64,000 bases of DNA. Source: an uncultured Acidobacteriota bacterium. Its GTDB lineage: Bacteria; Acidobacteriota; Vicinamibacteria; Vicinamibacterales; CAVPJW01. Numbering within the stretch: position 1 is the first letter of the stretch; every line of letters begins with the position of its first letter. The notes beneath the pieces are model-generated. The model was not told where the DNA came from, did not search any database, and saw only the letters and a program-made list of their open reading frames with translations. Below are positions 1 to 59,025 of this stretch, piece after piece. A program made the translations under genes and the position numbers. The stretch is from NCBI GenBank assembly GCA_963705525.1, contig CAVPJW010000004.1:64789-128788 (forward strand), written 5' to 3'.

Positions 1-2000
1 TCTGCATGCCCTTCGGACCGGCCTTCGCCCCATCGCTGGGTCTCAGTCTGCTCAAGAGCACACTGTCGAGGCACGACATCCCGTCGGACGTCTTCTATCC
101 TTCCATCCGGTTCGCGGAGATCGTCGGCCAGCATTTCTACAGCGGGATCGCCGTCGAAGGCCGCCCGTCGCAAATCGAGATGGCAGGTGAATGGATTTTC
201 TCGGCGGCGCTCTTCGACCGGCCATTGCGCGACGACGATCCCTACATCGAGGACGTTCTTGTCGGCCACGCGAACTGGGTACATCCGTTCGCCGCCAGAC
301 AGGCCTCCCCCGCGCTCATTCGGCGCATCGCGGCCGCCAGGCGTCATGTCACGCCGTTCCTTCACTGGTCGGTCGAGCAGATCCTCGCGGGAAGGCCGCG
401 CGTGGTCGGTTTTACGAGCGTGTTCCAGCAACATGTCGCCTCGCTCGCCGCGGCGCGCCTGCTCAAACAGACGGCACCCGATGTCGTGATCGTTCTTGGC
501 GGCGCGAACTGCGAAGGCGTCATGGGCGCCGAGACCGTGCGTCAGTTCCCGTTCGTCGACGCGGTGGTGTCCGGAGAAGGCGAAGTCATCTTCCCGCAGC
601 TCGTGACTCGTGTGCTGGCCGGCGAGTCGCTGGAGGGGCTCCCCGGCGTGTTCACGCAGGCGTCGATCGCGTCAAAGTCAGCGCGGGCGAATCGTCTCTC
701 GAATGCGCCAACGGTCTCTCGCATGGACGATCTGCCCTACCCCGACTACGGCGACTACATGCGCCAGTTCAAGGCCAGCCGCCTCGACCGCGACTGGATG
801 CCCACGCTCTATTTCGAGACGTCGCGCGGCTGCTGGTGGGGCGAGCGGCAGCATTGCACGTTCTGCGGCTTGAACGGGGCCACCATGACCTATCGCAGCA
901 AGTCGGCGGCGCGCGCCGTCGACGAGCTGGCGGCGCTCGTCGCCGACTATCCCGGCTGCGACGTGCAGGTGTCGGACAACATCCTCGATCTTCAGTACTT
1001 CAAGGACGTGCTCCCGGAGCTCGCCCGGCGTCAACTCGGCGTGAAACTGTTTTACGAGACCAAGTCCAATCTCAAGCGCGACCAGATCCGCCTGTTGCGG
1101 GATGCGGGCGTCCTCGAGATTCAACCGGGCATCGAGAGCCTGAGCGACAACGTCTTGAAGATGATGAAAAAAGGCGTCTCGGCCCTTCACAACATCCAGC
1201 TGCTCAAATGGTGCAAGGAGCTGGGCGTCGCGCCCCTCTGGAATGTCTTGTGGGGCTTTCCGGGAGAGTCGCCCGACGATTACGCGCGGATGGCCGCTAT
1301 CGTGCCGCTTCTGGCGCACCTGCCGGCGCCGCAGGGGTTCGCAGGACTCCGGCTGGATCGGTTCAGCCCGAATTTCGTTCGCGCGAACGAGATGGGCTTC
1401 AGCGATGTGCGGCCCCTGGCGGCCTACCGTCACATCTATGGTTTTCCAGACGAAGTGACGTCGAACATCGCGTACTCGTTCCACTATCGCTACACTGATG
1501 GCCGAAACGTCGAGCCATACGTGCAGCCGCTTCTCAAGACGTTGCGACGCTGGCGGCGAGTCGGGTCCGACTGCGATCTCCTCAGCCTCCGGCTTGACGA
1601 CCGCTTGCTGGTCTGGGACTTCCGCCCGGTCGCGCGCGCGCCGCTCACGATTCTCGCGGGCATCGATCGCCTGCTTTATGAAGCCTGCGATCAGATCAGC
1701 GATGTGACGCGGCTCGTGACAGCGGCGCAATGCTGCGACGAATCCGTGACGTTCGGCGACGTTGCCGACCGGCTCGCGCCGCTCATCGAGAGTGGGCTGC
1801 TGCTGAAGGACGGGGGGCGCTATCTGTCTTTGGCAATTCCCGTCGGTGAGTACGTTCCCTCGCCGGCCACGCTCGGTCGGATGGACGAGGCCATCCGGGG
1901 CCGGGGCTTGCCCAGAGCCGCCGTGAATGCGTATCTTCGTCCGCAGTTCTCGAAACGAGTCCATCGTCGTTCAGCCGCGAAGGCCGAACGACTTACCTAG
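1..2000 (+). CDS. B12-binding radical SAM enzyme, RiPP-maturase-like (5-prime end probably runs off the window)
   Basis: ORF 6..2000, open in frame to the window edge. N-terminal cobalamin-binding-like part (VVIVLGGANCEG). Radical SAM cluster motif YFETSRGCWWGERQHCTFCGL. C-terminal winged-helix-like tail (LLYEACDQISDVTRLV...GLLLKDGGRYLSL) resembles a precursor-recognition element. Confidence 0.8.
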   Translation, partial: CMPFGPAFAPSLGLSLLKSTLSRHDIPSDVFYPSIRFAEIVGQHFYSGIAVEGRPSQIEMAGEWIFSAALFDRPLRDDDPYIEDVLVGHANWVHPFAARQASPALIRRIAAARRHVTPFLHWSVEQILAGRPRVVGFTSVFQQHVASLAAARLLKQTAPDVVIVLGGANCEGVMGAETVRQFPFVDAVVSGEGEVIFPQLVTRVLAGESLEGLPGVFTQASIASKSARANRLSNAPTVSRMDDLPYPDYGDYMRQFKASRLDRDWMPTLYFETSRGCWWGERQHCTFCGLNGATMTYRSKSAARAVDELAALVADYPGCDVQVSDNILDLQYFKDVLPELARRQLGVKLFYETKSNLKRDQIRLLRDAGVLEIQPGIESLSDNVLKMMKKGVSALHNIQLLKWCKELGVAPLWNVLWGFPGESPDDYARMAAIVPLLAHLPAPQGFAGLRLDRFSPNFVRANEMGFSDVRPLAAYRHIYGFPDEVTSNIAYSFHYRYTDGRNVEPYVQPLLKTLRRWRRVGSDCDLLSLRLDDRLLVWDFRPVARAPLTILAGIDRLLYEACDQISDVTRLVTAAQCCDESVTFGDVADRLAPLIESGLLLKDGGRYLSLAIPVGEYVPSPATLGRMDEAIRGRGLPRAAVNAYLRPQFSKRVHRRSAAKAERLT

Positions 2001-2010
2001 AGGAGAGGCA

Positions 2011-2100
2011 ATGGCAAAGAAGGCTGCAAAGAAAACCAAGAAAAAGGCGAAGAAGGGCGGAGCCAAGAAAGGCAAGAAGAAGACCGGCATGGTCTTCTAA
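2011..2100 (+). CDS. 29-aa lysine-rich micro-protein MAKKAAKKTKKKAKKGGAKKGKKKTGMVF (candidate precursor peptide or small basic protein)
   Basis: ATG at 2011 lies 10 nt after the upstream TAG stop and is preceded by AGGAGAGG (2001-2008). 14 of 29 residues are Lys. TAA stop at 2098-2100, followed by a perfect hairpin. Too short for the supplied ORF track. Confidence 0.55.
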   Translation: MAKKAAKKTKKKAKKGGAKKGKKKTGMVF

Positions 2101-2110
2101 GAGGCCGACG

Positions 2111-2134
2111 CCCGCAGACGACCACGTCTGCGGG
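2111..2134. terminator. Bidirectional hairpin between convergent genes
   Basis: cccgcagacg (2111-2120), loop acca, cgtctgcggg (2125-2134): a perfect 10-bp stem. It sits between the micro-ORF stop (2100) and the kinase stop (2142). Confidence 0.7.
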
Positions 2135-2141
2135 CCTCAGT

Positions 2142-4712
2142 CTATTGAAGGCCCTTGACCACGTATAAGTCCATCAGGTACTGCCCGAACGAATACAGCA
2201 GGTGACGGCCGTCCGGCGTGATCTGCGCCGACACGAGTCCCGCGTATCCGGCTCGATCGGTCGGGGCCAGATTCAGCACGAGCTCGCGGCGTCCATTGTC
2301 CACGCCGAGCCGCCAGATCGACCAAGGATTGTCCCGCTTGCGGACGGCAAACACCCCTTGGCCATCGGCCGTCCATCGCACCACCGTATCGCCAGGCTGC
2401 GCGCCCTTCAACGGCTGCACCGTTCCGTCGCCGAGCGAGATCATCGTCGACTCTCCCTGATAGTCGAGCGCGACGACAGTGCGACCATCCGGCGAGATCG
2501 GAGCGGTGTAGGGCGCGAACGTGTAGCCCTCCGGCGAGACCGCACGAGGCGTTCCATCTTTGAGGCCCTGCAGGTACAGCTTGGTCGGGTGGCCTTGCTC
2601 GCGGCCCGAGAACACCACCGACTGGCCGTCCGGCATCCACGTCACGGCGCTAAAGTCGACGATCGGACCTCGCGCGAGAAGGGACGCCTCACCGGCCCCT
2701 GTGGGCAGAATGGTCACCGACTGCGGCGTCCCCACCGTCAATGCCGCAACCCGCTGCCCGTCTGGCGAGAGCGATCCCGCGGACCCCTCGCCCAGGCGAA
2801 CCGCCGAGGCGCCGTCCGACCTTCGAATGTAGACGGAATATCCATAGCCGCGGCTCCCCTCGCCCTGTTCATCGAAGATCACGGTCGAGCCGTCGGCCGA
2901 GATGTCCGTTGCGGCCGACGCGTCGAGCCACGACAACATCCGGTCCGCCGTCTGCAACCCATCGCGATAGGCCATCACCAGGCGCAGCCGCCCATCTGAA
3001 ATGAGCGCCTGCCCGTTCTGGTCGACATCGAGCACCGTCGTTCGGCCAAGCGACTTGATCAGCAAACGCGGTTTACCGCCGGGTTCGATGGCCCACAAGG
3101 ATGTGTTCTGGCCGACCTCGGAGGCGGAGAACCATATTTCATTTCCTCGGGGCGCCCAGGCGAGGCCGGTCGCGCTGGTCCAGCCCGCCGACACGACTCG
3201 CTTCACGCGGTCGGGCCCGATCACGCAGATGTCTCCACGGTCGTCCGAAGGCGCCGGGTGCTCGGTGAACGCCACGGTCCTGCCGTCCCGGGACACTCTC
3301 ACGTCCGCAATCCCGCCCGCGGTCTCATACAGGAGCGTTCCGGCCGGATATTCGAGCCGGAACTTCCCATCGTTCAGGCGAATCACGGCCAGCCCGGCGC
3401 CGTCTGGCGACCAATCCGCCTGCACGACGTCTTTCATGATCTCGCGAGGCACTCCGCCAACGATCGGCACGCGTGCGAGCGTCCCGAGGCCCGTCAGGCC
3501 GAAGAGTCGCTGCCGATTGATGGCAATGGCCATCTCTCCCGTCGACGACACCGACAGAAGCGTCGCGGCGCTCACATCGAGCGATCGGGATTCCGGGTTC
3601 TCGAGGCGCGTCGAGAACATGTCGAGCGGCGAGCCGTCCCACGACGCACTGTAGACGACCGTGTGTCCGTCGCCAGTGAAGCGGGCCGCATCGATATATC
3701 CATGCCGGAACGTGAGCTGGCGATAGTCGGGCACGGCGATCATCGCGGTCCGCCCGCCAAAGAACCACGCGCCGGCCATGGCACTCACGATGGCGACTGC
3801 GGCGAGAGGCAGGAGCCACCACCGGCGACGCGGGGCGGCTGCCGCCACGGCGTCGGTCGAAATACGGCCGCTCGCGATGGCCCCCAGGTGAAGCTCGATG
3901 TCTCGCGCCGACTGAAACCGGTTCCGCGGATTCTTCTCGAGGCATTGACGGACGACGAAGGCGGCCAGCGGCTCGGTTTCCGAGAGCGCGTCGATGCCCT
4001 CCGGCTCGCCAGTGAGAATCGCGTGCATCGTCTCGATATAGTTCCGTCCACTGAACGCGGCACGGCCCGTCAGCATTTCGAAGAGCACCGTCCCGAACGA
4101 AAAAATATCCGATCGGTGATCGACGTCCTCGCCCGAGGCCTGTTCGGGCGACATGTAGTCGACCGTCCCGACGATGGATCCGACCTTCGTCAGACCGGAA
4201 ATCACCTCGCCGGTCGTGGCCTCCGATGCCGACGTCACCCGTTTCTTGGCAAGACCGAAGTCGAGAATCTTCAGGTGATCGTCGCTGGTGATGAAGACGT
4301 TCTCGGGCTTCAGATCGCGATGGACGATGTGGCGATCGTGTGCGGCGGCGAGTCCGCTCGCGATCTGCCGCCCATACTGGATGGCTTTCGCCGCGGAGAT
4401 CCGGCCGCGCTTCAGCCGGGCCCGCAGCGTTTCCCCGTCGAGGAGTTCGGTGACGAGATAGGGCGCGCCCTCATGCTCACCGACGTCATAGAGCGCAATG
4501 ATGTTGGGGTGACTGATGGCGCTGGTCGCCTTCGCCTCGAGCTCGAATCGCTGAACTTCGTCGGCGCCGCCCATCTTCCCGCCGATCACCTTGAGCGCGA
4601 CCATTCGGTCGAGGCGAGTGTCGCGCGCGCGGTACACGTCGCCCATGCCTCCGCTGTCCAGCGTGCTGATCACTTCGTAAGGGCCGACGTTGGAGCCTTG
4701 AGCGAGTGGCAT
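2142..4712 (-). CDS. Ser/Thr protein kinase with one TM segment and a C-terminal TolB-like beta-propeller
   Basis: 856-aa ORF. Kinase motifs GGMGDVYRA, HRDLKPENV, DFGLAK, YMSPEQ. TM segment WWLLPLAAVAIVSAMAGAWFF. Repeated SPDG/WSPDG propeller motifs. Confidence 0.9.
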   Translation of the reverse strand: MPLAQGSNVGPYEVISTLDSGGMGDVYRARDTRLDRMVALKVIGGKMGGADEVQRFELEAKATSAISHPNIIALYDVGEHEGAPYLVTELLDGETLRARLKRGRISAAKAIQYGRQIASGLAAAHDRHIVHRDLKPENVFITSDDHLKILDFGLAKKRVTSASEATTGEVISGLTKVGSIVGTVDYMSPEQASGEDVDHRSDIFSFGTVLFEMLTGRAAFSGRNYIETMHAILTGEPEGIDALSETEPLAAFVVRQCLEKNPRNRFQSARDIELHLGAIASGRISTDAVAAAAPRRRWWLLPLAAVAIVSAMAGAWFFGGRTAMIAVPDYRQLTFRHGYIDAARFTGDGHTVVYSASWDGSPLDMFSTRLENPESRSLDVSAATLLSVSSTGEMAIAINRQRLFGLTGLGTLARVPIVGGVPREIMKDVVQADWSPDGAGLAVIRLNDGKFRLEYPAGTLLYETAGGIADVRVSRDGRTVAFTEHPAPSDDRGDICVIGPDRVKRVVSAGWTSATGLAWAPRGNEIWFSASEVGQNTSLWAIEPGGKPRLLIKSLGRTTVLDVDQNGQALISDGRLRLVMAYRDGLQTADRMLSWLDASAATDISADGSTVIFDEQGEGSRGYGYSVYIRRSDGASAVRLGEGSAGSLSPDGQRVAALTVGTPQSVTILPTGAGEASLLARGPIVDFSAVTWMPDGQSVVFSGREQGHPTKLYLQGLKDGTPRAVSPEGYTFAPYTAPISPDGRTVVALDYQGESTMISLGDGTVQPLKGAQPGDTVVRWTADGQGVFAVRKRDNPWSIWRLGVDNGRRELVLNLAPTDRAGYAGLVSAQITPDGRHLLYSFGQYLMDLYVVKGLQ

Positions 4713-4719
4713 CGAGAGG

Positions 4720-5496
4720 CTAGGTCACCTTGCCGACCGTCCAGAACCCCCAGGCCAGATCCGGATCGAGAAAATAGGAGTACGGCATGTAGCAGTAGCC
4801 TCCGGCGCCCCACGAGGATCCCCAGGAGTTGCGGACGATGAAGTGCCGCGAGTCCTCGAGATAGCCGACGACGAGCATGGCGTGCCCGCCGAGGCGTCGT
4901 TCGCGTGGAGACGGCAGCGGGACCACGCCAGTCTCCTTGACCAGCTTGCTCTTGAATGTCTCGTGCACCGCGAATCCGGCCGTGAACGGCTGCCCGGCCG
5001 CAAGACACACGCGCATGGTCCGCAGTGATTGCTCCAGGCGCGCGTAGCGGATCGCCCTGTGGTCCTCGGCCCTCACGTAGCAGTGCTTGGGTGGACACCG
5101 CCGAAATCGCCTGACGTCATAGGGCCACATGCGTTCTGTACACACACCGTGGCGCGCGACCGTCTTGTATCCGTCACGAAGCGACACGGGCTCGTTGTGG
5201 GCGATGCAGCCCTCGATGGCGCGCTCGTTGTAGTAGATGAACAAACGGGATGGAGAAGGATGGCGCGGATCGTGACGATGACGCTCCTCGAACCACACGG
5301 CGGCGGCGATCGCGTTTGCGGAGCACGAGTTCAAATGATGCTGGTTGTACACCGGCGGCATGTGGGGCCGAAGATCGACCTGTCTCGGAAGCTTCGCCTT
5401 GAACCGGGGCGGTTCATAGAGGTAATCGCGCGAATCGCGGCGGTCTTTGGCGGTGCCGTAACCGAAGCCTGTGAGTCTCATCGTATGTGTGGCCAA
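4720..5496 (-). CDS. Papain-like (C1 family) cysteine peptidase, no signal peptide
   Basis: Motifs VYNQHHLNSCSANA (Gln/Cys), GGHAMLVVGY (His) and NSWGSSWG (Asn-Ser-Trp). The stop is 7 nt upstream of the kinase start. Confidence 0.85.
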   Translation of the reverse strand: MATHTMRLTGFGYGTAKDRRDSRDYLYEPPRFKAKLPRQVDLRPHMPPVYNQHHLNSCSANAIAAAVWFEERHRHDPRHPSPSRLFIYYNERAIEGCIAHNEPVSLRDGYKTVARHGVCTERMWPYDVRRFRRCPPKHCYVRAEDHRAIRYARLEQSLRTMRVCLAAGQPFTAGFAVHETFKSKLVKETGVVPLPSPRERRLGGHAMLVVGYLEDSRHFIVRNSWGSSWGAGGYCYMPYSYFLDPDLAWGFWTVGKVT

Positions 5497-5695: not shown

Positions 5696-6514
5696 CTACT
5701 GTCCGACGTACTCCGCGTTGGTGATGCGGAGCGCCGTACGGGTGAGGACCAACCCGGGTCTGAGGTCGTACACCGACATTTCCTTCCCGTCGACCATAAA
5801 CTTGAATTCGGGATCGACGACGACGCGCACGACGCGATCTTTCTCGTTCCGGATGAGGAGCGTGGATCCGGAACGCTCGACGATCTTCCCGCGATCGACG
5901 ATCAGCGTGCCAGCCGTGTACGCCATTCCGGGCTTGCTACCTGAGGCCGCCGGCACCACCTTGGCAATGCTCGCCTCGGTCACCACGACGTCCAGTTTAT
6001 CGCCCGGCTTGAGCGTCTTCAGCTTCTCGACGAACTCAGGCCGGAGCACCGCCCGCGTCACGAGCGTGCCGTCGGCCTTCTGGACGACGAATGTCCGGCT
6101 TGCGGCGTCGGCCGTCACCACCGTGACCGTTTCCAGCGTCTGCTTCTCAGACGTCGCGGACGGCATTTCGCCGGGTGCGGCGGTGGTACTGCTGCCCCCG
6201 GAGAAGAGCGGATTGGCCTCACCCTTCTTATGGGCCGACACGGCAATCGACTGGTAGTAGCTCACCTCGACCATGTCCCCCACCTTGACCTGCGGGAGAT
6301 TCTTGACCTCCTCACTCACCCACCCGGACACTTCGCCTCCCAACGGACCGGCGAGCGTGATGTGTCGCGTCGCGAGGTCGAGCGCCTTCACTTCCGCGGT
6401 CATCATGACGAGCTCACCGCGGGTGATTTGCGACGGCGTCTGCGCGTACACGGACACGACACTGGCGACGAGCAGCGCCGCCAGCGCAACGATGGATCCT
6501 GAACACTTAGCCAT
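5696..6514 (-). CDS. Secreted protein of unknown function with three internally similar ~70-aa modules
   Basis: I chose the internal ATG at 6514, preceded by AAGGAG. It gives the signal peptide MAKCSGSIVALAALLVASVVSVYAQ. The 75 upstream residues of the long ORF look non-coding. Confidence 0.6.
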   Translation of the reverse strand: MAKCSGSIVALAALLVASVVSVYAQTPSQITRGELVMMTAEVKALDLATRHITLAGPLGGEVSGWVSEEVKNLPQVKVGDMVEVSYYQSIAVSAHKKGEANPLFSGGSSTTAAPGEMPSATSEKQTLETVTVVTADAASRTFVVQKADGTLVTRAVLRPEFVEKLKTLKPGDKLDVVVTEASIAKVVPAASGSKPGMAYTAGTLIVDRGKIVERSGSTLLIRNEKDRVVRVVVDPEFKFMVDGKEMSVYDLRPGLVLTRTALRITNAEYVGQ

Positions 6515-7086
6515 ACGGTTCTCCTTAGCTTGATTGCACAAAACGAGATGGGCGCCGCCGAGCATGACTCGTCGATTTGGATAATGACCTTGGCGCGATG
6601 CGCGAGGATGCCGGCCGTCTTCGTCGCCCTTGCCTATGCCATTTGCCGAGTCCAGCATACCCTCATCGACCGGTGCGATGCTGGACCAAGGTCTATTTTC
6701 TTTCTTGAAAACCAAACCGAACAATTGCCCCCACGCCAATTGCCTTCAAATGGGCCCCCCGGAAGGGCGAAGAGACCGCGTGATGGCCCCCTGCCGTTGA
6801 ACCTGATGCGTGACCTGCCATCGGAGAGTATTCGTGAGGCTGCCTCCTGACAAGTTGGACTTTGGTATTACGTCAGGACCGGCCGGATTCTCGGCACGTG
6901 GTCAAGCTCGAGCCTTCACGCCCTTGGCGAGGGCGAGGCCGTCGTAGGCCGCGCTGACAATGTTGACCCTGCGCTGGTCCCAGCGGCCCGCCTCGACGTG
7001 CGTGTGCACGCGAGTCCCTCCACCTTGATGGCACGGAGTCACCGTTCAACGCGGATCATCGCTGAATAAGGATAGACTGCTGCCAG

Positions 7087-8992
7087 ATGAAAGCGGCCTG
7101 CCACGTGCGGCGCGGTGTGTCATTGCGCTCGGCGCTCTTGATTGCCGTGGTGTTGGCCGGCGCGATCGCCTTGACCGTCCATGCTGCGCAGGGACAGCAC
7201 AGCGATCACGTCAAGACCGAGCCGCCAGGAATCCTGATTCTGGCCGTTGACGATTTCTCGCAGCCGTACGTTCGTCTCTTCACGGACAAGTTTGTCCAGG
7301 TCACATCGTCCGCACCGACCGTCCCGACGGTGTATCTCGAGTCGCTTGACGCCGTGCGCTTCGAGCACGCGGGCTACCTCGAGGAGTTTCGAGACTGGCA
7401 GCGTCGCAAATATGCGGGGAGCCGCATCGACCTTATCGTGGCGCTGGGCGAAGATGCGCTCGCCTTTCTCGCACGCCAGCGAGGCGAGCCGTGGCCGAAC
7501 GCCCCGGTGCTCTATGTCGAGATGGGTAGCGTCAAGGTCGACACGCGCCAGGATCTTCCGCAAGCCAGCGGAATGATTCTCGGGGAGTACTTTGAGCCCG
7601 CGCTGGCCACGGTCAAGACCATCCTGCCGGATACTAAACACGTTGTGCTTGTGTACGGCACGTCGGAGGTCGATCGAGGCCGGATGGGTGGCTTCGCGAG
7701 TACCGGTACGAGCCGCCAGGCTCGACCTGGAACCAATCGAATGGGTTGGCCTGACGATGGAATCGATGCTGTCCCGGGCGGCCCATCTACCCGCGCAGAC
7801 GGTTGTGTTCCTCCTGACGCCGTCTCTCGATGCCGCTGGACGCGCCCATGCGGTTCGACAGAATTGCGAGCGCCTGGCTGCGGTAGCAAACGTCCCGGTC
7901 TTCACGCTGGGGGCGCACGACCTCGGCTGCGGCGCCGTCGGTGGCCTCCAGCGGGACTGGACGCTCGTCGGCCGCATCGTCGCCGAGGCGGCTCTGGCTC
8001 GACTCGCTGGTGGACTGCCCGAAGTGACGAGGGTGCCGATTGAGCGGTTCAGCACCCTCGCGTTCGACGAGCGCCAGCTTGAACGCTGGCACATTCCGGA
8101 AGGACGGCTGCCTGCAGGCAGCACGATCCTCTTCCGCGAGTTCAATCTGTGGCGAGATCGGCGCTCTCTTGTGATCACGGCGATCATCGTGACCCTGGCG
8201 CAGGCGCTGCTCATCGTCGGCCTGGTCGTCGAGCGCCGACGACGGCAGCGGGCGGAGCTGGAGGGCCGACGCAGTCTGGCGACGATGGCACATCTGGATC
8301 GGAGAGCCGCGATGGGAGAGCTGGCCACGTCGCTGGCGCACGAACTCAATCAGCCGCTCAATGCGATTCTGCAGAACGCCGGCGCGGCGCAGATGATGTT
8401 GACGTCGGCATCCGGTCCGCCTCCCGTGGACGAAATACTGGACATCCTGAACGACATTCAAAGCGATGATGCGAGGGCTGGAGAGGTCATCCGAGGCATG
8501 AGTTCATTTCTCCGGAAGCAGGAGCTCGACGTCAAGGCCCTGGAGGTGAATTCGCTGGCACAGGAAACCGTCGCGCTCGTGCTTCCTGATGCGGCTGCGC
8601 GAGGAATCCACGTCCATCTCGAGCTGGCAGACGGCTTGACACCGATTCAGGGGGATCGCGTTCACTTGCAGCAGGTGCTCCTGAACCTCCTGATCAACGG
8701 CATGGATGCAGTGGGCGACCTGCCGCCCGATCGTCGTCGTCTGCGTGTCCGGACCGCGCAGTGGAACGGTCAGGTTGAACTCGGCGTGAACGACCGCGGC
8801 GCCGGTATCGAACCGGATCGTCTGTCGCATATCTTCGAAGCGTTCTACACGACCAAGGGGAAGGGCCTCGGGATGGGCCTCTCGATTGCGCGAAGCATCA
8901 TCGAGGCGCATGACGGAGACATGGGTGCCGAGAACAATCCCGAAGGCGGCGCAACCGTGTGGTTCCGCGTTCCCGCAGGGACCGAATCATGA
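7087..8992 (+). pseudogene. Sensor histidine kinase (periplasmic ABC-substrate-binding-like domain, TM, HisKA, HATPase), reading frame broken near 7675-7695
   Basis: ORF 7087..8043 gives a signal/TM segment plus a periplasmic domain up to ...VVLVYGTSEVDRG, then turns nonsensical. ORF 7592..8992 in the next frame continues sensibly (WVASR...LEPIEWVGL...TM...SLAHELNQPLNAI...GLGMGLSI). This is a single +1/-1 indel or a sequencing error. Confidence 0.75.
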
Positions 8993-9636
8993 CCGTCAAC
9001 GCCGGCGCCAAAGCCGATCGTCCGACTGTCCACGTCGTGGAGGATCACGAGTCGAGCCGAAGAGCGACTGCGCGAGTCCTGCAGGCCGCCGGATACGCGG
9101 TGCATCAGTACGCGTCGGCAGAAGAGTTTCTCGCCGTGATGCCGGCCGGTCCTGGCTGCCTTGTGCTCGACCTGCAGCTGCCCGGCCCAAGCGGTCTCGA
9201 CCTGCAGGAACAGTTGGCCAAGGAGACCGACCCGATGCCTGTCGTCTTCCTGTCGGGCAAGAGTGACGTGCCCAAGACCGCGCGGGCGATGAAGGCCGGG
9301 GCGATCGATTTCCTCACCAAACCGGTGAGCGGGAATGCTCTCCTCGAGGCCGTCGCACGGGCGCTGGTCAGGGACTCCGAGGACCGAATTGTCCGAACAC
9401 GCCAGCGGGAGGCACGAGTTCGATACGAGCGCCTGACGCCGCGCGAGCGCGAGGTGTTTGCGCACGTGATCAGCGGCCAGTTGAACAAGCAGGCCGGATT
9501 CGATCTTGGCACGACCGAGCACACGATCAAGGTGCATCGGCAGCGCGTGATGCAGAAGCTCGAAGCGGACTCCGTGGCCGATCTCGTCCGCATCGCCGCC
9601 GACCTCGACATCGCGCCCGTCGGCAAGGTTCGATGA
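8989..9636 (+). CDS. FixJ/LuxR-family response regulator (REC + HTH)
   Basis: The ATG at 8989 overlaps the kinase TGA (ATGA). REC domain VHVVEDHESSR...LVLDLQLPGPSG. HTH LTPREREVFAHVISGQLNKQAGFDLGTTEHTIKVHR. Confidence 0.9.
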   Translation: MTVNAGAKADRPTVHVVEDHESSRRATARVLQAAGYAVHQYASAEEFLAVMPAGPGCLVLDLQLPGPSGLDLQEQLAKETDPMPVVFLSGKSDVPKTARAMKAGAIDFLTKPVSGNALLEAVARALVRDSEDRIVRTRQREARVRYERLTPREREVFAHVISGQLNKQAGFDLGTTEHTIKVHRQRVMQKLEADSVADLVRIAADLDIAPVGKVR

Positions 9637-9684
9637 CACTAAGGTGCAATGGTCGGTCCACGGGCTATTCGTTAAGCTCGTGAC

Positions 9685-10080
9685 GTGACCAAACCGACCC
9701 CCGCAGGGCCCCTCGTCGTCGTCGTCGAGGATGATCCCGCCTCGCGCAAATCACTGGAGCGAGTGCTCCACGTGGGAGGATTCGACGCGGCGATGTTCGC
9801 GTCGGCGGAGGAGTTCCTCTCCTCCACGCGGGACTCCTCGGCCATTGGGATGTTGCTCGACCTGCAGCTGCCGGGCCTGTCCGGAGTTGACCTCCAGCGC
9901 CGACTGAGGAGAGAGGGCTCGACACTGCCCATCATCGTGATCACAGCGAACGTCGACACCCGGATCCGCGAAGAAGTCGAGCGGCTCGGTTGTCTCGCTT
10001 ACCTGTCCAAGCCCTGCGACGGCCGCACGATTCTCGCTCTGCTCCGCTCTCTCGTCACCGACACCGCACCGCCACGCTAG
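9685..10080 (+). CDS. Stand-alone response-regulator receiver (CheY-like)
   Basis: 131-aa ORF with VVVVEDDPASR...LLDLQLPGLSG...IIVITA...YLSKP. Confidence 0.85.
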   Translation: MTKPTPAGPLVVVVEDDPASRKSLERVLHVGGFDAAMFASAEEFLSSTRDSSAIGMLLDLQLPGLSGVDLQRRLRREGSTLPIIVITANVDTRIREEVERLGCLAYLSKPCDGRTILALLRSLVTDTAPPR

Positions 10081-10156: not shown

Positions 10157-11404
10157 ATGACGAGTCTGGCGGTCGCACCGGACGCGCGGGCGCAGACGAC
10201 GGAATCAGATCCGGCTCCGGCGCGCGGCAAGTTCGAACCCGATCCGCTGCCGCCTCCCGCAATGCCGTTTCTCATCCCGGATGCCCCGCTCAACGCCGAA
10301 GACAAGACCCAGATCCGCTCGAAGCGGTTCACGCTCAAGCTCGGGCTTGTGCTGATCGCGGACTACACGGCGTTCAGTCAAGACGAGGCGAATCTCTCGC
10401 AAGTCGGCACGCATCGGAACGAGTGGGATGACCGGGCGGCGCGACTGATGTTTCGCGGCGGCCTTGGCAAAGTGAACTACCTGGTCGCCGGCGAGTACAA
10501 GGGCTTCGACACCGATCCGGAGACGACGTGGCAAGTCACGGATGTCTCTCTCACGTTCCCGCTCGGGGGACCGAGGACGAAGCTCACGGTCGGCAAGACC
10601 AAGGAGACATTTGCCTACGAAATGGTCGGCGACGCCGCCAACCTGCCGCCCCAGGAACGCGTGCTCAATCCCTTCTTCGTCTCGCGCAACATCGGCGTGA
10701 AGCTCACACGGGTCATGGGCAAAGAGCATCGGATGACGGCGTCGGCAGGCGTGTTCAACGACTGGTGGGTGAACGGCGATCGATTCTCCGATAGCGGAAC
10801 GGACGTCACGGCCCGTGTCACGGGACTGGTGTGGGACCAACCGGATGGGACACATTTCCTCCACGTCGGCCTTGCGACCCGCTACGCGGGTGCGGACCAC
10901 GACACGATGCGCCTGAGGGCCCGGCCCGAATCGAACGTGACCGACTACTACCTGGACACGGGCACGCTGTCCGGCGACCACGCGCAGCAGCTCGGGTTCG
11001 AAACGCTGTGGAACCAAGGGCCGTTCTCGATTCTGGCGGAGTACAACCGTGCGTGGGTGGACGCGCCCGCATCCGGAGACCCCGAATTCTCTGGTTATTA
11101 CATCACCGGGAGCTGGGTGCTGACGGGCGAAACGCGTCCGTATGACCGCACGGTGGGCTACGCGCGCCGCGTCATGCCAAAGGGCCGGTGGGGGGCGCCA
11201 GAACTCGTCGCGCGGTTCTCGCACGTCGATCTCGACGACGGTGTGGTCCAGGGCGGCACCTTCGACAAGACCTATCTGGGCATCAACTGGTGGGCGACGC
11301 GCCGATGGAAGTTCGGATTTGGCTGGGGACACACCTGGCTCGATCGGTTCACCAAGACCGGGGTGACGGAGAGTTTTCAGACGCGCCTGCAATGGGTCTA
11401 CTGA
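10157..11404 (+). CDS. Phosphate-selective porin O/P family outer-membrane porin (5-prime end uncertain)
   Basis: C-terminal WKFGFGWGHTWLDRF...RLQWVY and overall beta-barrel composition. In-frame upstream codons read ALSALTFACVLMTSLAVAPDARAQ but have no in-frame start. The ATG at 10120 is one base out of frame, so an indel near 10120-10130 is possible. Confidence 0.75.
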   Translation: MTSLAVAPDARAQTTESDPAPARGKFEPDPLPPPAMPFLIPDAPLNAEDKTQIRSKRFTLKLGLVLIADYTAFSQDEANLSQVGTHRNEWDDRAARLMFRGGLGKVNYLVAGEYKGFDTDPETTWQVTDVSLTFPLGGPRTKLTVGKTKETFAYEMVGDAANLPPQERVLNPFFVSRNIGVKLTRVMGKEHRMTASAGVFNDWWVNGDRFSDSGTDVTARVTGLVWDQPDGTHFLHVGLATRYAGADHDTMRLRARPESNVTDYYLDTGTLSGDHAQQLGFETLWNQGPFSILAEYNRAWVDAPASGDPEFSGYYITGSWVLTGETRPYDRTVGYARRVMPKGRWGAPELVARFSHVDLDDGVVQGGTFDKTYLGINWWATRRWKFGFGWGHTWLDRFTKTGVTESFQTRLQWVY

Positions 11405-11464: not shown

Positions 11465-11827
11465 CTAGCGGGCAAGCGGGACGATCTTCGATCGGAGCAA
11501 GGCGCGATCTCTCGTCACGAGCGGCAGCTTCTGCACCACGCTCGTTGCGGCGATGAGCTCGTCGGCCGGGTCACCGCGGATGTCGAGGCGCGTGCTCATT
11601 CGCGCGATCTCCAGGGTCAAGGGCCAGACGTGAACGCCGGCCAGCACCCGGACCACAGCGGGATCGTCCAGATCGACTTCGATCCGGCCGAGCTGGGCGA
11701 GCTTGGCAATCTCCCACAACACGATCGCCGAGATGCTCCAGCGATTGGCACTGAGCAGCCGTGTCTCGCGCGGCCGGAGCGCACCGGTCATGGCATACAG
11801 CAGGACGTGCGTGTCAACGTTCAGCAT
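11465..11827 (-). CDS. vapC: PIN-domain toxin (VapC-type)
   Basis: 120 aa. Acidic PIN residues in MLNVDTHVLL, LWEIAKL, DPADELIAAT and LVTRD. Overlaps the upstream antitoxin ORF by 14 nt. Confidence 0.85.
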   Translation of the reverse strand: MLNVDTHVLLYAMTGALRPRETRLLSANRWSISAIVLWEIAKLAQLGRIEVDLDDPAVVRVLAGVHVWPLTLEIARMSTRLDIRGDPADELIAATSVVQKLPLVTRDRALLRSKIVPLAR

Positions 11828-12038
11828 TCCAGTCGAGCCCGGTGGACAGGATGTCGCCCTTGATCCGGAGCTTGCCTGTCAGGGATCCGATGAGGCTCCT
11901 CGAGTCCGAGGCAAACGGTATCAGTCTCGCCACCGGTTTGCCCCGCTTCGTGATCAGAATCCCGTCCGGGTCCACTTCGTCGAGGAGGGACAGGCACTGC
12001 TCCTTGAATTTGGCGGCCGCAATGCTCTTCATAGGCAC
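11814..12038 (-). CDS. Phd/YefM-type antitoxin
   Basis: 74 aa. KSIAAAKFKEQCLSLLDEVDPDGILITKRGKPVARLIP is typical of prevent-host-death antitoxins. It overlaps the PIN toxin gene. Confidence 0.8.
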   Translation of the reverse strand: MPMKSIAAAKFKEQCLSLLDEVDPDGILITKRGKPVARLIPFASDSRSLIGSLTGKLRIKGDILSTGLDWNAER

Positions 12039-12183
12039 ATTATGAGACTGGTCATCTTAAATGTCCAGTGGTCCCCCCGGCTGGCGGAAGGAATTCAGGC
12101 CTTCGGTTCTCTGAGCATTCCGGCCTTGACGTGCAAGCCGGGCACCGACATCGTGATGTGGTTCCCCACGCAAGAGAGACAAC

Positions 12184-12579
12184 ATGACGTACACCGTTCA
12201 GACATCGACACCACCGAAGACGCCGACCCCGATCGGCCCGTACCATCACATCGCCAGGGTCGGCCCGTTTGTGAGCATCGGCGGAACGGCCGGGGTCAAT
12301 CCGTCAACGGGTCAACTGGCGGGCCCGGATGTGCACGCGCAGGTCATACAGATACTCGACTCGTTCGCGGTCATGCTGGCGTCGGTCGGATCCGATCTGA
12401 GTCATATCGTGCACGTCAACGTCTTCCTGAAGAGCATGCAGGATTTCGACGACATGAACCGCGCGTACGTGGAAAAGATGGGAGCTCACCGTCCGGCCCG
12501 GACGGTGATTGGCGTCAACGAGCTTCCCAAACCCGGAGTGCTCGTGACCATGAACCTGACGGCCGTCACGAGGGAATAG
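12184..12579 (+). CDS. RidA/YjgF/L-PSP family protein
   Basis: 131 aa. PIGPYHHIARVGPFVSIGGTAGVNP...PARTVIGVNELPKPGVLVTMNLTAV. Confidence 0.85.
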   Translation: MTYTVQTSTPPKTPTPIGPYHHIARVGPFVSIGGTAGVNPSTGQLAGPDVHAQVIQILDSFAVMLASVGSDLSHIVHVNVFLKSMQDFDDMNRAYVEKMGAHRPARTVIGVNELPKPGVLVTMNLTAVTRE

Positions 12580-12595
12580 ACGGCGAGCCGAAGAT

Positions 12596-12621
12596 GCCGG
12601 CGGGTTGAGCGACCCGCCGGC
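12596..12621. terminator. Bidirectional hairpin between convergent genes
   Basis: gccggcgggt (12596-12605), loop tgagcg, acccgccggc (12612-12621): a perfect 10-bp stem between stops at 12579 (+) and 12633 (-). Confidence 0.6.
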
Positions 12622-12632
12622 GGCCTCGGGTT

Positions 12633-13529
12633 TCAGTCGTCCTGGTGCCCGTGTGACCGGCGCAGGTATCCGTGACTGTTGCCGTCCTGGTCGTTGTAGA
12701 CGCCCACGATCTCGCCCAGATCGTTGATGCCGTTGGCGTCCGTCAGCGACGCGCCCGGAAAGTCGATCGCCGTGAATCCGTGGGATGTTCGCAGGAACCC
12801 ATGCTCCCCGGTGTCACCGTCAAAGAAGACGCCGACGATCCGGCCAAAGACATTGATCCCGTTGGCTCTGGTGACGAGGACGGTGTCGCCCGGATAGTCG
12901 ATCTGCGTGAAGACCCCGCTCTTCAGTAGAAAGCCGTGGAAGATACCGTCCGGGTCCTCGAGTCGGAAATAGAAGCCGACGATCCTCCCGAGGTCATCCA
13001 TTCCCTGGGGCCTCGTCTCGGCCGAGCCAGGGGGGTCGAAGGTGTGGAAGCCGTGTCCGTCCCGGAGGAACCCGTGATTGACACCATCGGTTCCACTGAA
13101 CTGGCCGACGATTCGTCCGAAATCATCGATCCCCTTCACCCGTGTGTCGCTCGCGCCTGGCACGTCAATCGTGCTGAACCGGCCGTGCCGCAACACATAA
13201 CCGTGGCCGATTCCATCTGCACCTACGTAGACCCCGGCCACGTCACCCAGATTGTTGATGTCATTACCAAAGGTGAATGTCGCTCCAGGCGCGTCGATCA
13301 GCGTGAAGTGGCCGCGCCGGAGCAGAAAGCCGTGCCGGCTCCCGTCCGCATCCCTGCAGTTGCCGACGATGTCGCCGACGTTGTTGTTGCCGAGCGCCTG
13401 GGTGAACACGGCGCTGGGGCAGTCGAATGACGTGTAGCTTTGCGCTGTTGCGGTGGCCGCAACACCGAGAGACAGCACGGTGGCCACGAGCGCGATGGGC
13501 AAATAGCGAATCGGCTTGAATGGTTCCAT
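12633..13529 (-). CDS. Secreted repeat protein with about six ~45-aa repeats (HAF-family-like extracellular repeats)
   Basis: I chose the internal ATG at 13529, preceded by AAGGAG. It gives the signal peptide MEPFKPIRYLPIALVATVLSLGVAATATAQ. Repeating pattern DG..HGFL...G.F..ID.PGA..T...GIN..G.IVG. Confidence 0.65.
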   Translation of the reverse strand: MEPFKPIRYLPIALVATVLSLGVAATATAQSYTSFDCPSAVFTQALGNNNVGDIVGNCRDADGSRHGFLLRRGHFTLIDAPGATFTFGNDINNLGDVAGVYVGADGIGHGYVLRHGRFSTIDVPGASDTRVKGIDDFGRIVGQFSGTDGVNHGFLRDGHGFHTFDPPGSAETRPQGMDDLGRIVGFYFRLEDPDGIFHGFLLKSGVFTQIDYPGDTVLVTRANGINVFGRIVGVFFDGDTGEHGFLRTSHGFTAIDFPGASLTDANGINDLGEIVGVYNDQDGNSHGYLRRSHGHQDD

Positions 13530-13701
13530 GGTCCATCTCCTTGGCGGCAACCTTGCCGCATCGAACTTCTGAGCTGACTCCTGCCGAGGCTTCTGAGCGA
13601 ATTGGGTTCGTGATTCGCTATCACTGCTACAGTAGGCTCGGTGGCGCGCGGAGTCCTTGGAGAGCGATGGGATTTCGATGGGTTCCGGGTCGTGGATTCC
13701 T

Positions 13702-14394
13702 ATGAGGCTTCGCTTCGGTAAGGTACGGTTCGATGCGGACGCCCGACAGCTCTGGTTCGGCTCGGACGAACGCCATCTGTCGGGCAAGGCGTTCGAGCTG
13801 CTGAAGCTGCTGGTCGAGCGGCGTCCGGCAGCGGTCTCCAAGTCAGACATTCAGGCGCATCTCTGGCCCGAGACGTTCGTCTCGGAAACGAACCTGCCGA
13901 GCCTCATTGCCGAGATCCGGAAAGCGCTTGGCGACCATGCGCGCCGCTCAACGTGTATCCGCACGGTGCACCGCTTCGGTTATGCGTTCGACGCCATCGT
14001 GATCGAGGACACGGTCGAAGACGGAACGGCCTCGCGCCGAGTCGCCTCGGTGCCGGTGCGTCACTGGCTGACCGGGGAACACGGCCGAACGGCTTTGATC
14101 GAGGGAGAGAACGTGATGGGTCGTGAAGGGTACGCTATCGCGTTCGATTCGCCGACCGTCTCCCGTCGTCACGCCCGAATTACGATCGACGAGCGGGGGG
14201 CGGTGCTCGAGGATCTGGGCAGCAAGAATGGCACGTACTTGAAGGACGCTCGACTCACGTCACCCGCACGGCTCGTCGACGGCGACCAGATTCGCGTGGG
14301 CTCGGTGCGGTTGACCTTCAGAATGGTCGACTCGCTCGCGTCGACGAAAAAGGATTCTTTGTCGGGACAGCGACGCTCGAGTTCGAACCAATGA
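13702..14394 (+). CDS. Transcriptional regulator: OmpR/CadC-type winged helix fused to an FHA domain
   Basis: wHTH LSGKAFELLKLLVERRPAAVSKSDIQAHLWP...IRTVHRFGYAF. FHA GREGYAIAFDSPTVSRRHARI...LEDLGSKNGTYL...GDQIRVGSVRLTF. The start could be 13657, 13678 or 13702. Confidence 0.8.
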   Translation: MRLRFGKVRFDADARQLWFGSDERHLSGKAFELLKLLVERRPAAVSKSDIQAHLWPETFVSETNLPSLIAEIRKALGDHARRSTCIRTVHRFGYAFDAIVIEDTVEDGTASRRVASVPVRHWLTGEHGRTALIEGENVMGREGYAIAFDSPTVSRRHARITIDERGAVLEDLGSKNGTYLKDARLTSPARLVDGDQIRVGSVRLTFRMVDSLASTKKDSLSGQRRSSSNQ

Positions 14395-14555: not shown

Positions 14556-17256
14556 ATGGCTCTTTCGGCCGGCGCCCGCCTCGGCCCGTACGAGCTCATC
14601 AGCCTCACCGGCGCAGGAGGCATGGGCGAGGTCTACCGCGCCAAGGACACGCGGCTCGACCGCACGGTCGCGATCAAGGTGCTCCCGGCGCGCACTGCGG
14701 ATGATCCCGAACAGCGCGAGCGACTCGATCGCGAGGCGCGCGCCATCTCCAGCCTGAATTCCCCGAACATCTGCGCTTTATTCGACGTCGGCCATCAGGA
14801 TGGCGTTGACTACCTCGTGATGGAATATCTCGAAGGGGAGACACTCGCGGATCGCTTGAGCCGCAAGGTCGGATCTCAAAACGCGCCACTGCCGCTGAAA
14901 GATGTCTTGCGGTACGCGATCGAGATCGCGGGCGCTCTCGACAAGGCACACCGCGCGGGGTTCGTGCATCGCGATCTGAAGCCGGGCAACATCATGCTGA
15001 CGAAGTCGGGCGCCAAGCTGCTCGACTTCGGCCTGGCGAAGCGGCACGAACCCGAAGCCCGTGTTGCTGCGGAAAGTCTTTCTGCGCCGTCGACGCGCAC
15101 GGGTCCGCTGACAGGCAAGGGAATGATTCTCGGCACGCTGCAATACATGGCGCCCGAGCAGCTCGAAGGAAAGGCGACTGACGCCCGAACCGACATCTTC
15201 GCGCTCGGCGCCGTGATCTACGAGATGGCCACGGGGAGAAGAGCGTTCGAGGCCACGAGTCAGGCGAGCCTGATCGCCGCGATCCTCGATGCCGACCCGC
15301 CCGCGATCTCGACCCTGCAACCGATGACGCCGCCCGCGCTCGAACATGTGGTCAAAGTTTGTCTGGCCAAGGATCCCGATGAGCGGTGGCAGGCCGCCGG
15401 CGACGTCGCCCGCGAGTTGAAGTGGATTTCCGAGGCGAGCTCGCAGGCGGGCATGCCCGCGCCGGTAAAGGCCCGCGCGAAGCGCCACACGGCGTACCTG
15501 AGCGCCGCGACGGCTCTGTTCGCCTTGACGGCTGGGGTCTTGGCATTCGTACATCTGCGCGAGACGCCCGTCGAAACCAGTCGAACCCGCCTGTTCATCC
15601 TGCCGCCAGAACACGTGGCCTCTCCGGTCTACAACCAGATCGAAAGCCCACCGGTGGTGTCGCCCGACGGCCGGCAAATTGCCTTCGTCGCCCACGCGAT
15701 CGGAGGCTCAGATTCTGTCTGGGTACGGCCACTCGATGCCCTGGTGGCGCGAGTACCTGCCTGGTACCGATGGGGTCGCGGCCTCGAGCTCGCGCCCGTT
15801 CTGGTCACCCGACAGCCGATCGCTGGCGTTTTTTGCGGGCGGCCAGCTCAAACGGATCGCGATTGCCGGTGGGCCCCCACAGGTGCTGTGCGAGGCGCTG
15901 GACGGACGAGGCGGAACGTGGAACGAGCAGGGCACGATCGTGTTTGCGCCGGATGGCTTTGGCGCTTTATCTCAGATCTCCGCAACGGGCGGCGCCGTCA
16001 CGCCCGCGACGAAGCTGGCCCCGACTGAGACCAGCCATCGCTGGCCCATGTTCCTGCCGGACGGTCGTCACTTCCTCTATACGAGTCGGACCGAGAACTC
16101 GTCGGGCGCCGAGGTGGCATCGCTGGATTCAGCAGATGTCCGGCACGTCCTGAACAATGAAAGTGGCCGGTTCAATGTCGCGTATGCGAACACGGACCAA
16201 CTGCTCTTCGCGCGGGTCGGGACCATGGGCGGCGGGACACTCTTTGCGCAGTCCTTCGACCATGCCCGACTCGCTCTTGCTGGTCAGCCGGTGGTCATCG
16301 CCGAGCAGGTGGCGATGGATGGTGGAGGATTGGGCGCCACGTTCTCTATCTCGACCAACGGTGTGCTGGTGTACCGACAAGAGGCCCCTCCGGCGAGCGT
16401 GCAACCAGTCTGGTTCGATCGAACAGGCAGACGGCTTGGGACAGTCGGGCCACCTGCCAATCAGTCCGACCTAAGCCTATCGCCCGACGGAACGCGCGTC
16501 GCTGTCACCCGAGAGCTCGCACAACGCGGCCTCGCGGACATCTGGCTCCTGAGCGTCGCCAGCGGCACCGCGTCTCGGTTTACATTCGACTCGCAGAGTG
16601 GTGGCAGCATCTGGTCGCCAGACGGCCGGCTCATCGCCGTTGGTACGTATAGTGGCCTCGTCCAAAAAGCTTCGAGCGGTCGGGGCGAAGCCGAAGTGCT
16701 TGTCACCACTGGCGCTCTTGGCGGCGTTCCCACCGATTGGTCCCGTGATGGGCGATTCATCGTCTATGCCCACCAGGATTCCGGGAGCAAGATGGATCTT
16801 TGGGCACTTCCGCTGTCTGGCGATCGGGAGCCGATCGAGCTGGTGCGCACGGATGGTTGGGACGGACAGGGCCAATTCTCGCCGGACGGCCGCTGGCTCG
16901 CGTACACCTCTGACGTGAGCGGGCGCGTGGAGGTCTACGTCCAGGCCTTTCCTGCCGCGGGCGGCAAGTGGCAGGTTTCGGCGAGTGGCGGAACGCAGCC
17001 CCGCTGGCGAGGCGATGGCAAGGAGCTCTTCTACATCGGTGCTGACAACCAGTTGATGGCAGCGACGGTGAAGCCGGGAGCGGAAAGCTTCGACACTGGT
17101 GTCCAGCAGCCACTGTTCGGCATACGCGTCGCTCCCGGTGACTTTTCTTCCTTTGCTGTGACCCCAGACGGCCAGCGGTTTCTCGTCAACACGGTCGTCA
17201 ACGACCCGTCGCAGCCGATTGTCGTAGTGCTGAACTGGGCGGCGGCGCTCAAATAG
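14556..17256 (+). pseudogene. Ser/Thr protein kinase with TM and TolB-like beta-propeller, reading frame broken near 15740-15760
   Basis: ORF 14556..16028 gives the kinase (GGMGEVYRAKD, HRDLKPGNIM, DFGLAK), the TM segment and the first propeller blade up to SDSVWVRPLDALVAR. The sensible continuation (YLPGTDGVAASSSRPFWSPDSRSLAFF...) is in ORF 15679..17256, in another frame. Confidence 0.8.
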
Positions 17257-58937: not shown

Positions 58938-59025
58938 AGTTCTTGGTTCTGGGTTCTTAGTTCTTTGTTCTACTAAGCACGAAGCACCAAGAACTAAGAC
59001 TACTGGTTCTTAGTTCTTAGTGCCC
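58938..59025. repeat. Intergenic array of the same 7-bp motif filling the imuB-dnaE2 spacer: 5 forward, 4 inverted and 3 forward units
   Basis: AGTTCTT GGTTCTG GGTTCTT AGTTCTT TGTTCTA c TAAGCAC GAAGCAC CAAGAAC TAAGACT act GGTTCTT AGTTCTT AGTGCCC. The 11-nt segment aagaactaaga (58989-58999) is complementary to both 58955-58965 and 59008-59018. Confidence 0.9.

Follow-up and report, generated by a model that had tools for sequence, protein, structure and literature searches.

We analyzed a stretch of 64,000 nt from an uncultured Acidobacteriota bacterium (contig CAVPJW010000004.1, positions 64,789 to 128,788; in the following called the window), at whose left end a gene for a B12-dependent radical S-adenosylmethionine (SAM) C-methyltransferase is directly followed by a lysine-rich micro-ORF, a very short open reading frame (ORF). 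The methyltransferase gene is located on the plus strand at positions 1–2000, in frame from base 3, and its 5′ end is cut by the window edge. It covers residues 9–673 of the 673-amino-acid protein P0001, with only residues 1–8 lying outside. An initial annotation made from the sequence alone had placed its stop codon TAG at 1998–2000 and compared the product to B12-radical SAM maturases for ribosomally made, post-translationally modified peptides (RiPPs), and both statements hold. The alignment to the NCBIfam model TIGR03975 (“RiPP maturation radical SAM C-methyltransferase”) reached 638 bits, with a cutoff of 281.85, and spans model positions 6–606 of 606. Pfam Radical_SAM was matched with 61.5 bits and Pfam B12-binding with 30.3 bits, the latter slightly below the cutoff of 32.1. 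The cluster motif C285-x7-C293-x2-C296 (SRGCWWGERQHCTFCGL) is present, and Cys285, Cys293 and Cys296 are invariant across 54 homologs.

An AlphaFold2 model of the enzyme, built from 54 homologs, reached a predicted local distance difference test score (pLDDT) of 89.8 and a predicted template modeling score of 0.90. Its best matches among the folds in the PDB are the cobalamin-dependent radical SAM methyltransferases TokK, TsrM, OxsB, CysS and MgmA; the alignments to cobalamin-bound TokK, TsrM, OxsB and CysS span ~560–620 columns with E-values of 1e-14 to 1e-10. Sequence comparison also ranked TokK first among the structures. In the model, the enzyme has an N-terminal cobalamin-binding Rossmann domain. 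The C-terminal part consists of three strands (residues 534–560), three helices (561–604) and a strand wing (608–622), a predicted topology that fits the winged-helix tail proposed initially and resembles the peptide-binding RiPP recognition element (RRE).

Directly after the stop codon follows a Shine-Dalgarno site (AGGAGAGG, 2001–2008, plus strand) with its GGAG core 5 nt ahead of an ATG at 2011. This start codon opens a gene of 29 codons plus stop (2011–2100, plus strand, stop codon at 2098–2100) for the peptide MAKKAAKKTKKKAKKGGAKKGKKKTGMVF. The Shine-Dalgarno site, the start codon and the content of 14 Lys in 29 residues are as initially described; the lysines are encoded by 11 AAG and 3 AAA codons. 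The peptide ends with the non-Lys island T-G-M-V-F (2083–2097, plus strand), which we propose as a putative core or modification site. The A-rich character noted before against the GC-rich surroundings was confirmed, with 44% A and 48% GC in the micro-ORF compared to 18% A and 63% GC in the window. It is the 90-nt stretch with the highest A content within the 64 kb, and no other small ORF in any of the six frames of the window reaches 22% Lys. The peptide had no match in NCBIfam, Pfam or PADLOC. PADLOC likewise returned none for the enzyme or for the peptidase described below, and only generic kinase-domain matches for the neighboring Ser/Thr kinase.

A GC-rich hairpin lies between the micro-ORF and the convergent gene on its other side. 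Its perfect 10-bp stem, CCCGCAGACG-ACCA-CGTCTGCGGG at 2111–2134, was already recognized in the initial annotation and can be extended to 11 bp at 2110–2135. The hairpin folds with −30.9 kcal/mol (z = −5.8), and none of 200 shuffled sequences folded as well. A simple terminator scan made no call here because no T-run follows this strong hairpin, which is likely a bidirectional transcription stop without U-tract. Rfam and tRNA scans of the window yielded zero matches, so that the region contains neither a riboswitch nor an RNA gene.

Conservation of the micro-ORF next to one enzyme clade

Conservation was studied in 80 genome and 80 metagenome loci encoding relatives of the enzyme, ranked by identity to P0001; in all, 161 related loci were considered. 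We call a Lys-rich micro-ORF after the enzyme gene a K-ORF and a locus with this arrangement a K-locus. Neighborhoods were compared by targeted tblastn and Pfam scans, as ORF clustering was unusable in this high-GC DNA (spurious overlapping ORFs). The exact P0001 sequence has no database record, and the upstream context was taken instead from L001, a locus with 80% identity.

A K-ORF was found directly 3′ of the enzyme gene in ~60 of the 161 loci, conserved in position and composition and starting from −1 nt (TGATG overlap) to 55 nt past the enzyme stop codon. Among the loci ranked, nearly every one with an enzyme at least 52% identical to P0001 and with downstream DNA available has a K-ORF, and none has one at 51% identity or less. 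A neighbor-joining tree was built from 134 full-length enzymes; the K-linked ones among them, 56 in number, all fell within one clade of 60. The four members without K-ORF are L113, which has no downstream DNA, L076, and the duplicate pair L114/L120. The Lys-rich ORF beside orthologous enzymes, whose conservation had been put forward as the first check on the idea of a linked peptide, thus defines a monophyletic enzyme clade. Its named genomes belong to Vicinamibacteria, Holophagales, Thermoanaerobaculia and unclassified Acidobacteriota, and the micro-ORF has been retained over three acidobacterial classes.

Within the K clade, the enzymes of L005, L006, L009, L011, L092, L093, L101, L106, L110, L128, L134 and others end with an Arg-rich disordered linker followed by the conserved motif L-[TS]-x-S-x-F-S-[IV]-x-x-x-G-[ED]-L-[LV]-I-R, which is missing from the subclade of the window enzyme. 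In an AlphaFold2 model of P0063, this motif (residues 687–701) was predicted as a confident beta-hairpin (pLDDT 81–94) behind a low-confidence linker.

The micro-ORF is a real coding gene under selection, and a chance or non-coding origin is effectively excluded. All copies have an AAGGAG-type Shine-Dalgarno site 6–8 nt ahead of the start codon, and several starts overlap the enzyme stop codon. A GC-rich hairpin equivalent to that of the window likewise stands behind the stop codon of every K-ORF. Considering the 10-nt spacing with its Shine-Dalgarno site, the TGATG overlaps in relatives and the shared hairpin as a likely terminator, we conclude that enzyme and micro-ORF are co-transcribed and translationally coupled, in agreement with the initial annotation. 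As a separate observation, AGTCAGA-type heptamer runs, similar to repeats found elsewhere in the window (see below), occur downstream of the K-ORFs in L064, L094 and L107.

In a subfamily with the tail KKPVGLPG, the tail codons (CCG GTG/GTC/GTA GGC TTA/TTG/CTT CCT/CCC/CCA/CCG GGC/GGT) differ only synonymously, while the Lys/Ala tract varies freely in length. From this, the sequence-specific conservation resides in the short non-Lys island. The earlier idea of a modification on the lysines, by Lys C-methylation or crosslinking, finds no support in this pattern. The peptides of Holophagales reach 58–77 residues of AKKA-type repeats. Otherwise identical loci of one type (L004, L084–L087) differ in their number of KKKIA repeats, ranging from 2 to 5 units.

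We compared 54 distinct K-peptides, which are 16–79 amino acids long (median 31.5) with a median of 43% Lys; 49 of them begin with MA. The non-Lys island is usually C-terminal and often of the form [VT]-G-hydrophobic, and a G-[MILVC] pair occurs inside the last 12 residues of 32 of the 54 peptides. Tail types track the enzyme subclades. The window peptide ends with TGMVF and its closest relatives with KVGMVNY, KVGMVDM, KTGIFAS, RSVGILNE and RTVGIRNG. Individual subclades are characterized by KKKD[VA]G[MLV][IV] (for example KDVGMI), KKPVG[LVI]P(G/PT), KTA[GA]CIGPG, KVGVTNN[ST]x, K[IR]xSGI[AGI] or DLIGTPMHFG. The window peptide and seven relatives matched no NCBIfam leader family. The longer relatives scored 9–29 bits against the histone H1-like models NF038053, NF038052 and NF050153, a compositional similarity far from the cutoffs of 80–135.

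One locus, L011 (6004–10559), contains two tandem enzyme paralogs. Behind each stands a separate K-ORF with a Shine-Dalgarno site of its own, and the two K-ORFs encode MPKKKTKKKKPTGVKS and MAPKKKTAKKKKPAKPKKTKKGMVRGG. This one-to-one pairing is the pattern expected of an enzyme–substrate pair. The only exact peptide traced from the peptide side, P0122, was present on 8 contigs and follows the enzyme gene wherever upstream DNA is present. In an exact-sequence look-up, 2 of 10 peptides were found in a collection of 15 billion proteins, the single named one as “hypothetical protein”, and public annotations mostly omit these micro-ORFs. As a consequence, genome-mining pipelines see an “orphan” maturase at these loci.

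The position directly after the enzyme gene is taken by recognized RiPP precursors in sister clades. In L015, this ORF encodes an NHLP-clan protein (NF038399, 56.7 bits, cutoff 40); the product of that in L081 belongs to the leader peptides of the Nif11 type (TIGR03798, 35 bits, cutoff 32.3). A tblastn search with both precursors found relatives in non-K loci only and zero in K-loci, and the K-ORF occupies the same position as these precursors. The general statement of the initial annotation that such maturases act on small neighboring precursor genes is correct for the family; for the window enzyme, such an action is putative. A canonical precursor upstream of the enzyme gene had also been considered. 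Upstream of the L001 enzyme, only a gene for a SnoaL/ketosteroid-isomerase-like protein of 140 amino acids lies on the same strand (9558–9980), 20 nt before the enzyme gene, and no NHLP- or Nif11-like ORF was found in any K-locus. The SnoaL-like gene was seen in no other related locus and was rejected as part of the module. Around the K-loci, no other candidate substrate gene is conserved.

Kinase and peptidase genes beside the micro-ORF

Convergent on the micro-ORF, a gene at 2142–4712 on the minus strand encodes a membrane Ser/Thr protein kinase, identified by its Pfam and NCBIfam domains and a hydropathy scan. It is predicted to consist of a cytoplasmic kinase domain (residues 12–267), one transmembrane helix (~300–320) and an extracytoplasmic beta-propeller of the PD40/TolB type. 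An orthologous propeller with 42–71% identity was found in 25 K-loci and in none of 101 loci without K-ORF, nearly always convergent just past the micro-ORF. A search starting from the kinase yielded two further modules, L170 (62% identity) and L171 (46%), in each of which the kinase gene is convergent to a B12-radical SAM gene with K-ORF; the L170 peptide is MAKKKKVGTKKAKKKGKKKKKKTGIFAS. Kinase homologs with 43–44% identity (P0194, P0206 and P0242) have no radical SAM neighbor. We therefore rejected an association of the entire Ser/Thr kinase/propeller family with the module and conclude that only a kinase subfamily is dedicated to it.

Two peculiarities of these additional loci, both from long-read assemblies, should be mentioned. 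The radical SAM gene beside the K-ORF is split into two ORFs in L170 (6767–8733; 384 + 268 amino acids) and in L171 (6790–8497; 352 + 214 amino acids), which may be due to an assembly frameshift error or may indicate a pseudogene. The L171 peptide (6562–6790, minus strand) shows an internal duplication of the unit GxGRGRxRVGKKTxKKAAKKK.

The kinases of other K-loci are built differently. In the L004 type, a kinase with tetratricopeptide repeats (TPR), the enzyme gene (4-nt overlap with the kinase gene), the K-peptide gene, a 2-hydroxyacid dehydrogenase gene and two more kinase genes follow each other on one strand. A same-strand protein kinase gene lies directly after the enzyme gene also in the non-K TIGR03975 loci L030, L031, L034, L036–L038, L139, L140, L144, L145 and L147, for example a kinase with TPR in L031. 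An association of radical SAM enzymes with kinases thus seems to extend beyond the K clade.

Upstream of the kinase gene, at a distance of 7 nt and in the same operon, a gene at 4720–5496 on the minus strand encodes a cytoplasmic papain-family (C1A) cysteine peptidase (Pfam Peptidase_C1). Its closest solved structure is 3ois (E = 1.9e-56). The catalytic motifs Q/C58, GGHAM and NSWG are intact, and there is neither an N-terminal hydrophobic segment nor a signal peptide. A C1 peptidase is present in ~15 K-loci and in none of the non-K loci. Two arrangements occur: its gene stands behind the kinase gene or, as in the KKPVGLPG subclade, converges directly on the micro-ORF. Both the kinase and the peptidase genes belong to the module.

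Proposed role of the lysine-rich peptide

The micro-ORF probably encodes the substrate peptide of the adjacent B12-radical SAM C-methyltransferase and would then represent a previously undescribed type of RiPP precursor or carrier restricted to Acidobacteriota. This interpretation is based on the TIGR03975 membership and fold of the enzyme, the conservation of the K-ORF, its confinement to a single clade, its equivalence in position to known precursors, the pairing in L011, the selection on the tail, the linked peptidase and the precedent of the clavusporins. The linkage of a small gene to a modifying enzyme that characterizes RiPP precursors exists here in ~60 loci, is clade-defining and is paired in L011. 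The two options of the initial annotation, a substrate of a new type or a small basic protein co-transcribed with the enzyme, were left standing by the conservation, the upstream region and the translation signals alike.

We suggest that a low-complexity Lys/Ala tract, free to vary in length, stands in for the folded leader (NHLP or Nif11) of the sister enzymes. The non-Lys island of 3–10 residues (here T-G-M-V-F) is the sole part under sequence-specific selection. The peptide might be bound through the RRE-like winged-helix domain of the enzyme. By analogy with PoyB/PoyC and MpcB, one or more methyl groups would be placed on unactivated carbons of the island, in the side chains of Val, Ile, Leu, Met, Pro or Thr. 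Where present, the cytoplasmic C1A peptidase may trim the product or free the modified tail from the poly-Lys carrier, similar to PoyH, as its linked gene circumstantially suggests. The conserved receptor-type Ser/Thr kinase may regulate or sense the system. The Lys tract itself may serve as carrier, as solubilizing or targeting segment or as functional polycation, and peptide and enzyme may also act together on a polyanion. A more elaborate version, which we consider distinctly doubtful, views poly-Lys as a disposable carrier from which the C1A peptidase frees a C-methylated di- to hexapeptide (for example the tail M-V-F or M-I behind the conserved Gly) that the enzyme makes at the C-terminus; this product or the modified full peptide would be the ligand of the kinase beta-propeller in a peptide signaling circuit of Acidobacteriota, built on a new RiPP class.

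Several observations weigh against the peptide being the substrate. The mean net charge of the K-clade enzymes is +8.9 compared to −12.3 at the other loci (p = 6e-20), and they carry a basic C-terminal extension of ~76 amino acids. No acidic patch specific to them was found, with 3 scattered columns differing. Electrostatic leader recognition in its simple form was rejected on these grounds, and it is unlikely that the poly-Lys tract is a leader read through mere complementarity of charge. In L090, L091, L101 and L110, the island is internal and flanked by Lys runs at both ends, and in L115, L128 and L035 it is barely hydrophobic. Many K-loci have no C1 peptidase, and no conserved transporter or exporter was found in the K-locus neighborhood. 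With such basic enzymes, no conserved exporter and barely hydrophobic islands, two alternatives stay alive. The Lys-rich product could be a small intracellular, histone H1-like protein that binds a polyanion (nucleic acid, polyphosphate or ribosomes) and is modified by the enzyme under kinase control, rather than a processed or secreted natural product. The longer relatives (58–77 amino acids, AKKA-type) do match histone H1-like DNA-binding families weakly, by composition; a basic enzyme with a basic extension and a basic peptide would fit co-localization on a polyanion, an exporter is not conserved nearby, and kinases are nearly always adjacent, up to the co-transcription of kinase, enzyme and peptide with the 4-nt kinase–enzyme overlap in the L004 type. 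Yet scores of 12–29 bits stay far below cutoffs of 80–135, the window peptide has no match at all, 16–30 residues are short for an architectural protein, and the linked C1 peptidase together with the RiPP-precursor position points to processing. We regard this explanation as unlikely, though it deserves consideration.

It is rather improbable that the peptide is an accessory factor, such as an enzyme partner or kinase regulator, and that the methyltransferase has its target in a protein or peptide encoded elsewhere, if not in the kinase or peptidase itself. Enzyme and peptide are without charge complementarity, many K-clade enzymes have at their C-terminus a conserved motif of their own, confidently predicted as a beta-hairpin (S-x-F-S-[IV]-x-x-x-G-x-L-[LV]-I), which might fill a peptide-binding site, and a kinase gene stands directly after the enzyme gene in non-K sister loci. 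The K-ORF, however, sits in the exact precursor slot of the sister clades, pairs one-to-one with the enzyme in the tandem duplicate L011 and has tails under purifying selection that track the enzyme subclades, and no alternative substrate gene is conserved. That the micro-ORF is no functional coding gene at all and represents a chance frame, a regulatory short ORF or a spacer is extremely improbable. Its low complexity, its omission from most public annotations and the record of only 2 of 10 exact sequences could be explained in this way, but start codon, Shine-Dalgarno site, open frame and stop codon are kept in ~60 divergent loci from three acidobacterial classes, the tail codons change only synonymously, the A-rich stretch is unique in 64 kb, and no same-strand gene lies downstream that could be regulated.

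The system resembles several known ones. TIGR03975 enzymes place C-methyl groups on unactivated carbons and are known from the proteusins (polytheonamides), where they are guided by a large folded leader; PoyB and PoyC are presumably members of this family. The polytheonamide system (PoyA, PoyB/PoyC, PoyH) resembles the one described here in its TIGR03975 enzyme and in the substrate gene, a putative one in our case, adjoining the enzyme gene. C1A peptidases are uncommon in bacteria, but some, among them PoyH and ThoK, are known to act as leader proteases on RiPPs, PoyH of polytheonamide biosynthesis being the characterized example (PMC10885120). A stand-alone C1A cysteine peptidase is likewise associated with the system described here. 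In contrast to proteusins, the peptide has no NHLP (TIGR03793 clan) or Nif11 (TIGR03798) leader domain; it measures 16–79 amino acids, is composed of 40–50% Lys, and its candidate core would comprise 3–10 residues. Near the locus there is no epimerase, dehydratase, N-methyltransferase or transporter, and a receptor Ser/Thr kinase is conserved instead.

In the clavusporins of Streptomyces (MpcA/MpcB/MpcC), the B12-radical SAM enzyme MpcB installs beta-methyl groups on Val, Ile, Thr and Pro of a short core beside a charged segment (PMC10849626). In both systems, a highly charged segment flanks the core, which is a candidate one here, and a dedicated peptidase gene lies alongside. They differ in enzyme lineage and host phylum (Acidobacteriota versus Actinobacteria), and the charged segment is cationic and N-terminal here, whereas that of the clavusporins is an acidic follower. 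When L001, L162 and the neighboring genes in the window were annotated with Pfam, the DUF5825 partner, S9 peptidase and MFS transporter of the Mpc clusters were not found.

In MftA, PqqA and pearlins, too, a small peptide is encoded next to a radical SAM enzyme and is conserved mainly in its final residues, and a linked peptidase could release a small product, but other enzyme families and other chemistry are involved. Among carrier peptides, none is known to be a poly-Lys tract. These three, mycofactocin MftA, pyrroloquinoline quinone PqqA and the pearlins (PMC9303977), would be comparators with a C-terminal core or carrier peptide. The histone H1-like Lys/Ala-rich proteins (Hc1/Hc2, Burkholderia H1-like, Rv3852 family) share the AKKA/PAKK-type composition of the longer relatives. 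They differ in that the scores against them lie far under the cutoffs and that the peptides described here are much shorter, end with a non-Lys tail that is conserved, and show a strict linkage to a radical SAM maturase.

Full-text literature searches brought up no Lys-rich substrate of a radical SAM enzyme. While the family of the enzyme is known, as is the general logic of RiPPs, the situation differs for the other parts: with no NCBIfam or Pfam model and no publication found, the proposed precursor class and the peptide/kinase/C1 peptidase module are undescribed. A role as substrate would imply that the architecture of the precursor is new and that its mode of recognition, with neither folded leader nor charge complementarity, is probably new as well. 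For a class of enzymes that is difficult to study, enzymologists would gain a very small, readily synthesized substrate. The clade occurs in abundant, poorly cultured soil Acidobacteriota and, through its coupling to a receptor Ser/Thr kinase and a C1A peptidase of a kind rare in bacteria, may open a view on peptide-based regulation or signaling there.

Other genes and repeats in the window

Further to the right, the window contains genes for a HisKA/HATPase histidine kinase (7592–8992, plus strand), a phosphate-selective porin O/P (10157–11404, plus strand), a second Ser/Thr kinase whose kinase domain is 43% identical and which lacks the propeller (14556–16028, plus strand), and an outer-membrane barrel resembling TonB-dependent receptors (17907–19187, plus strand). 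Three ORFs in this region, at 5696–6739 (minus strand), 11703–12608 (plus strand) and 12633–13850 (minus strand), had no Pfam match. Heptamer tandem repeats of AGTGCTT / AGTTCTT are located at 55929–56010, 58685–58715 and 58938–58971, flanking an ORF of 1150 amino acids at 55481–58933 on the minus strand.

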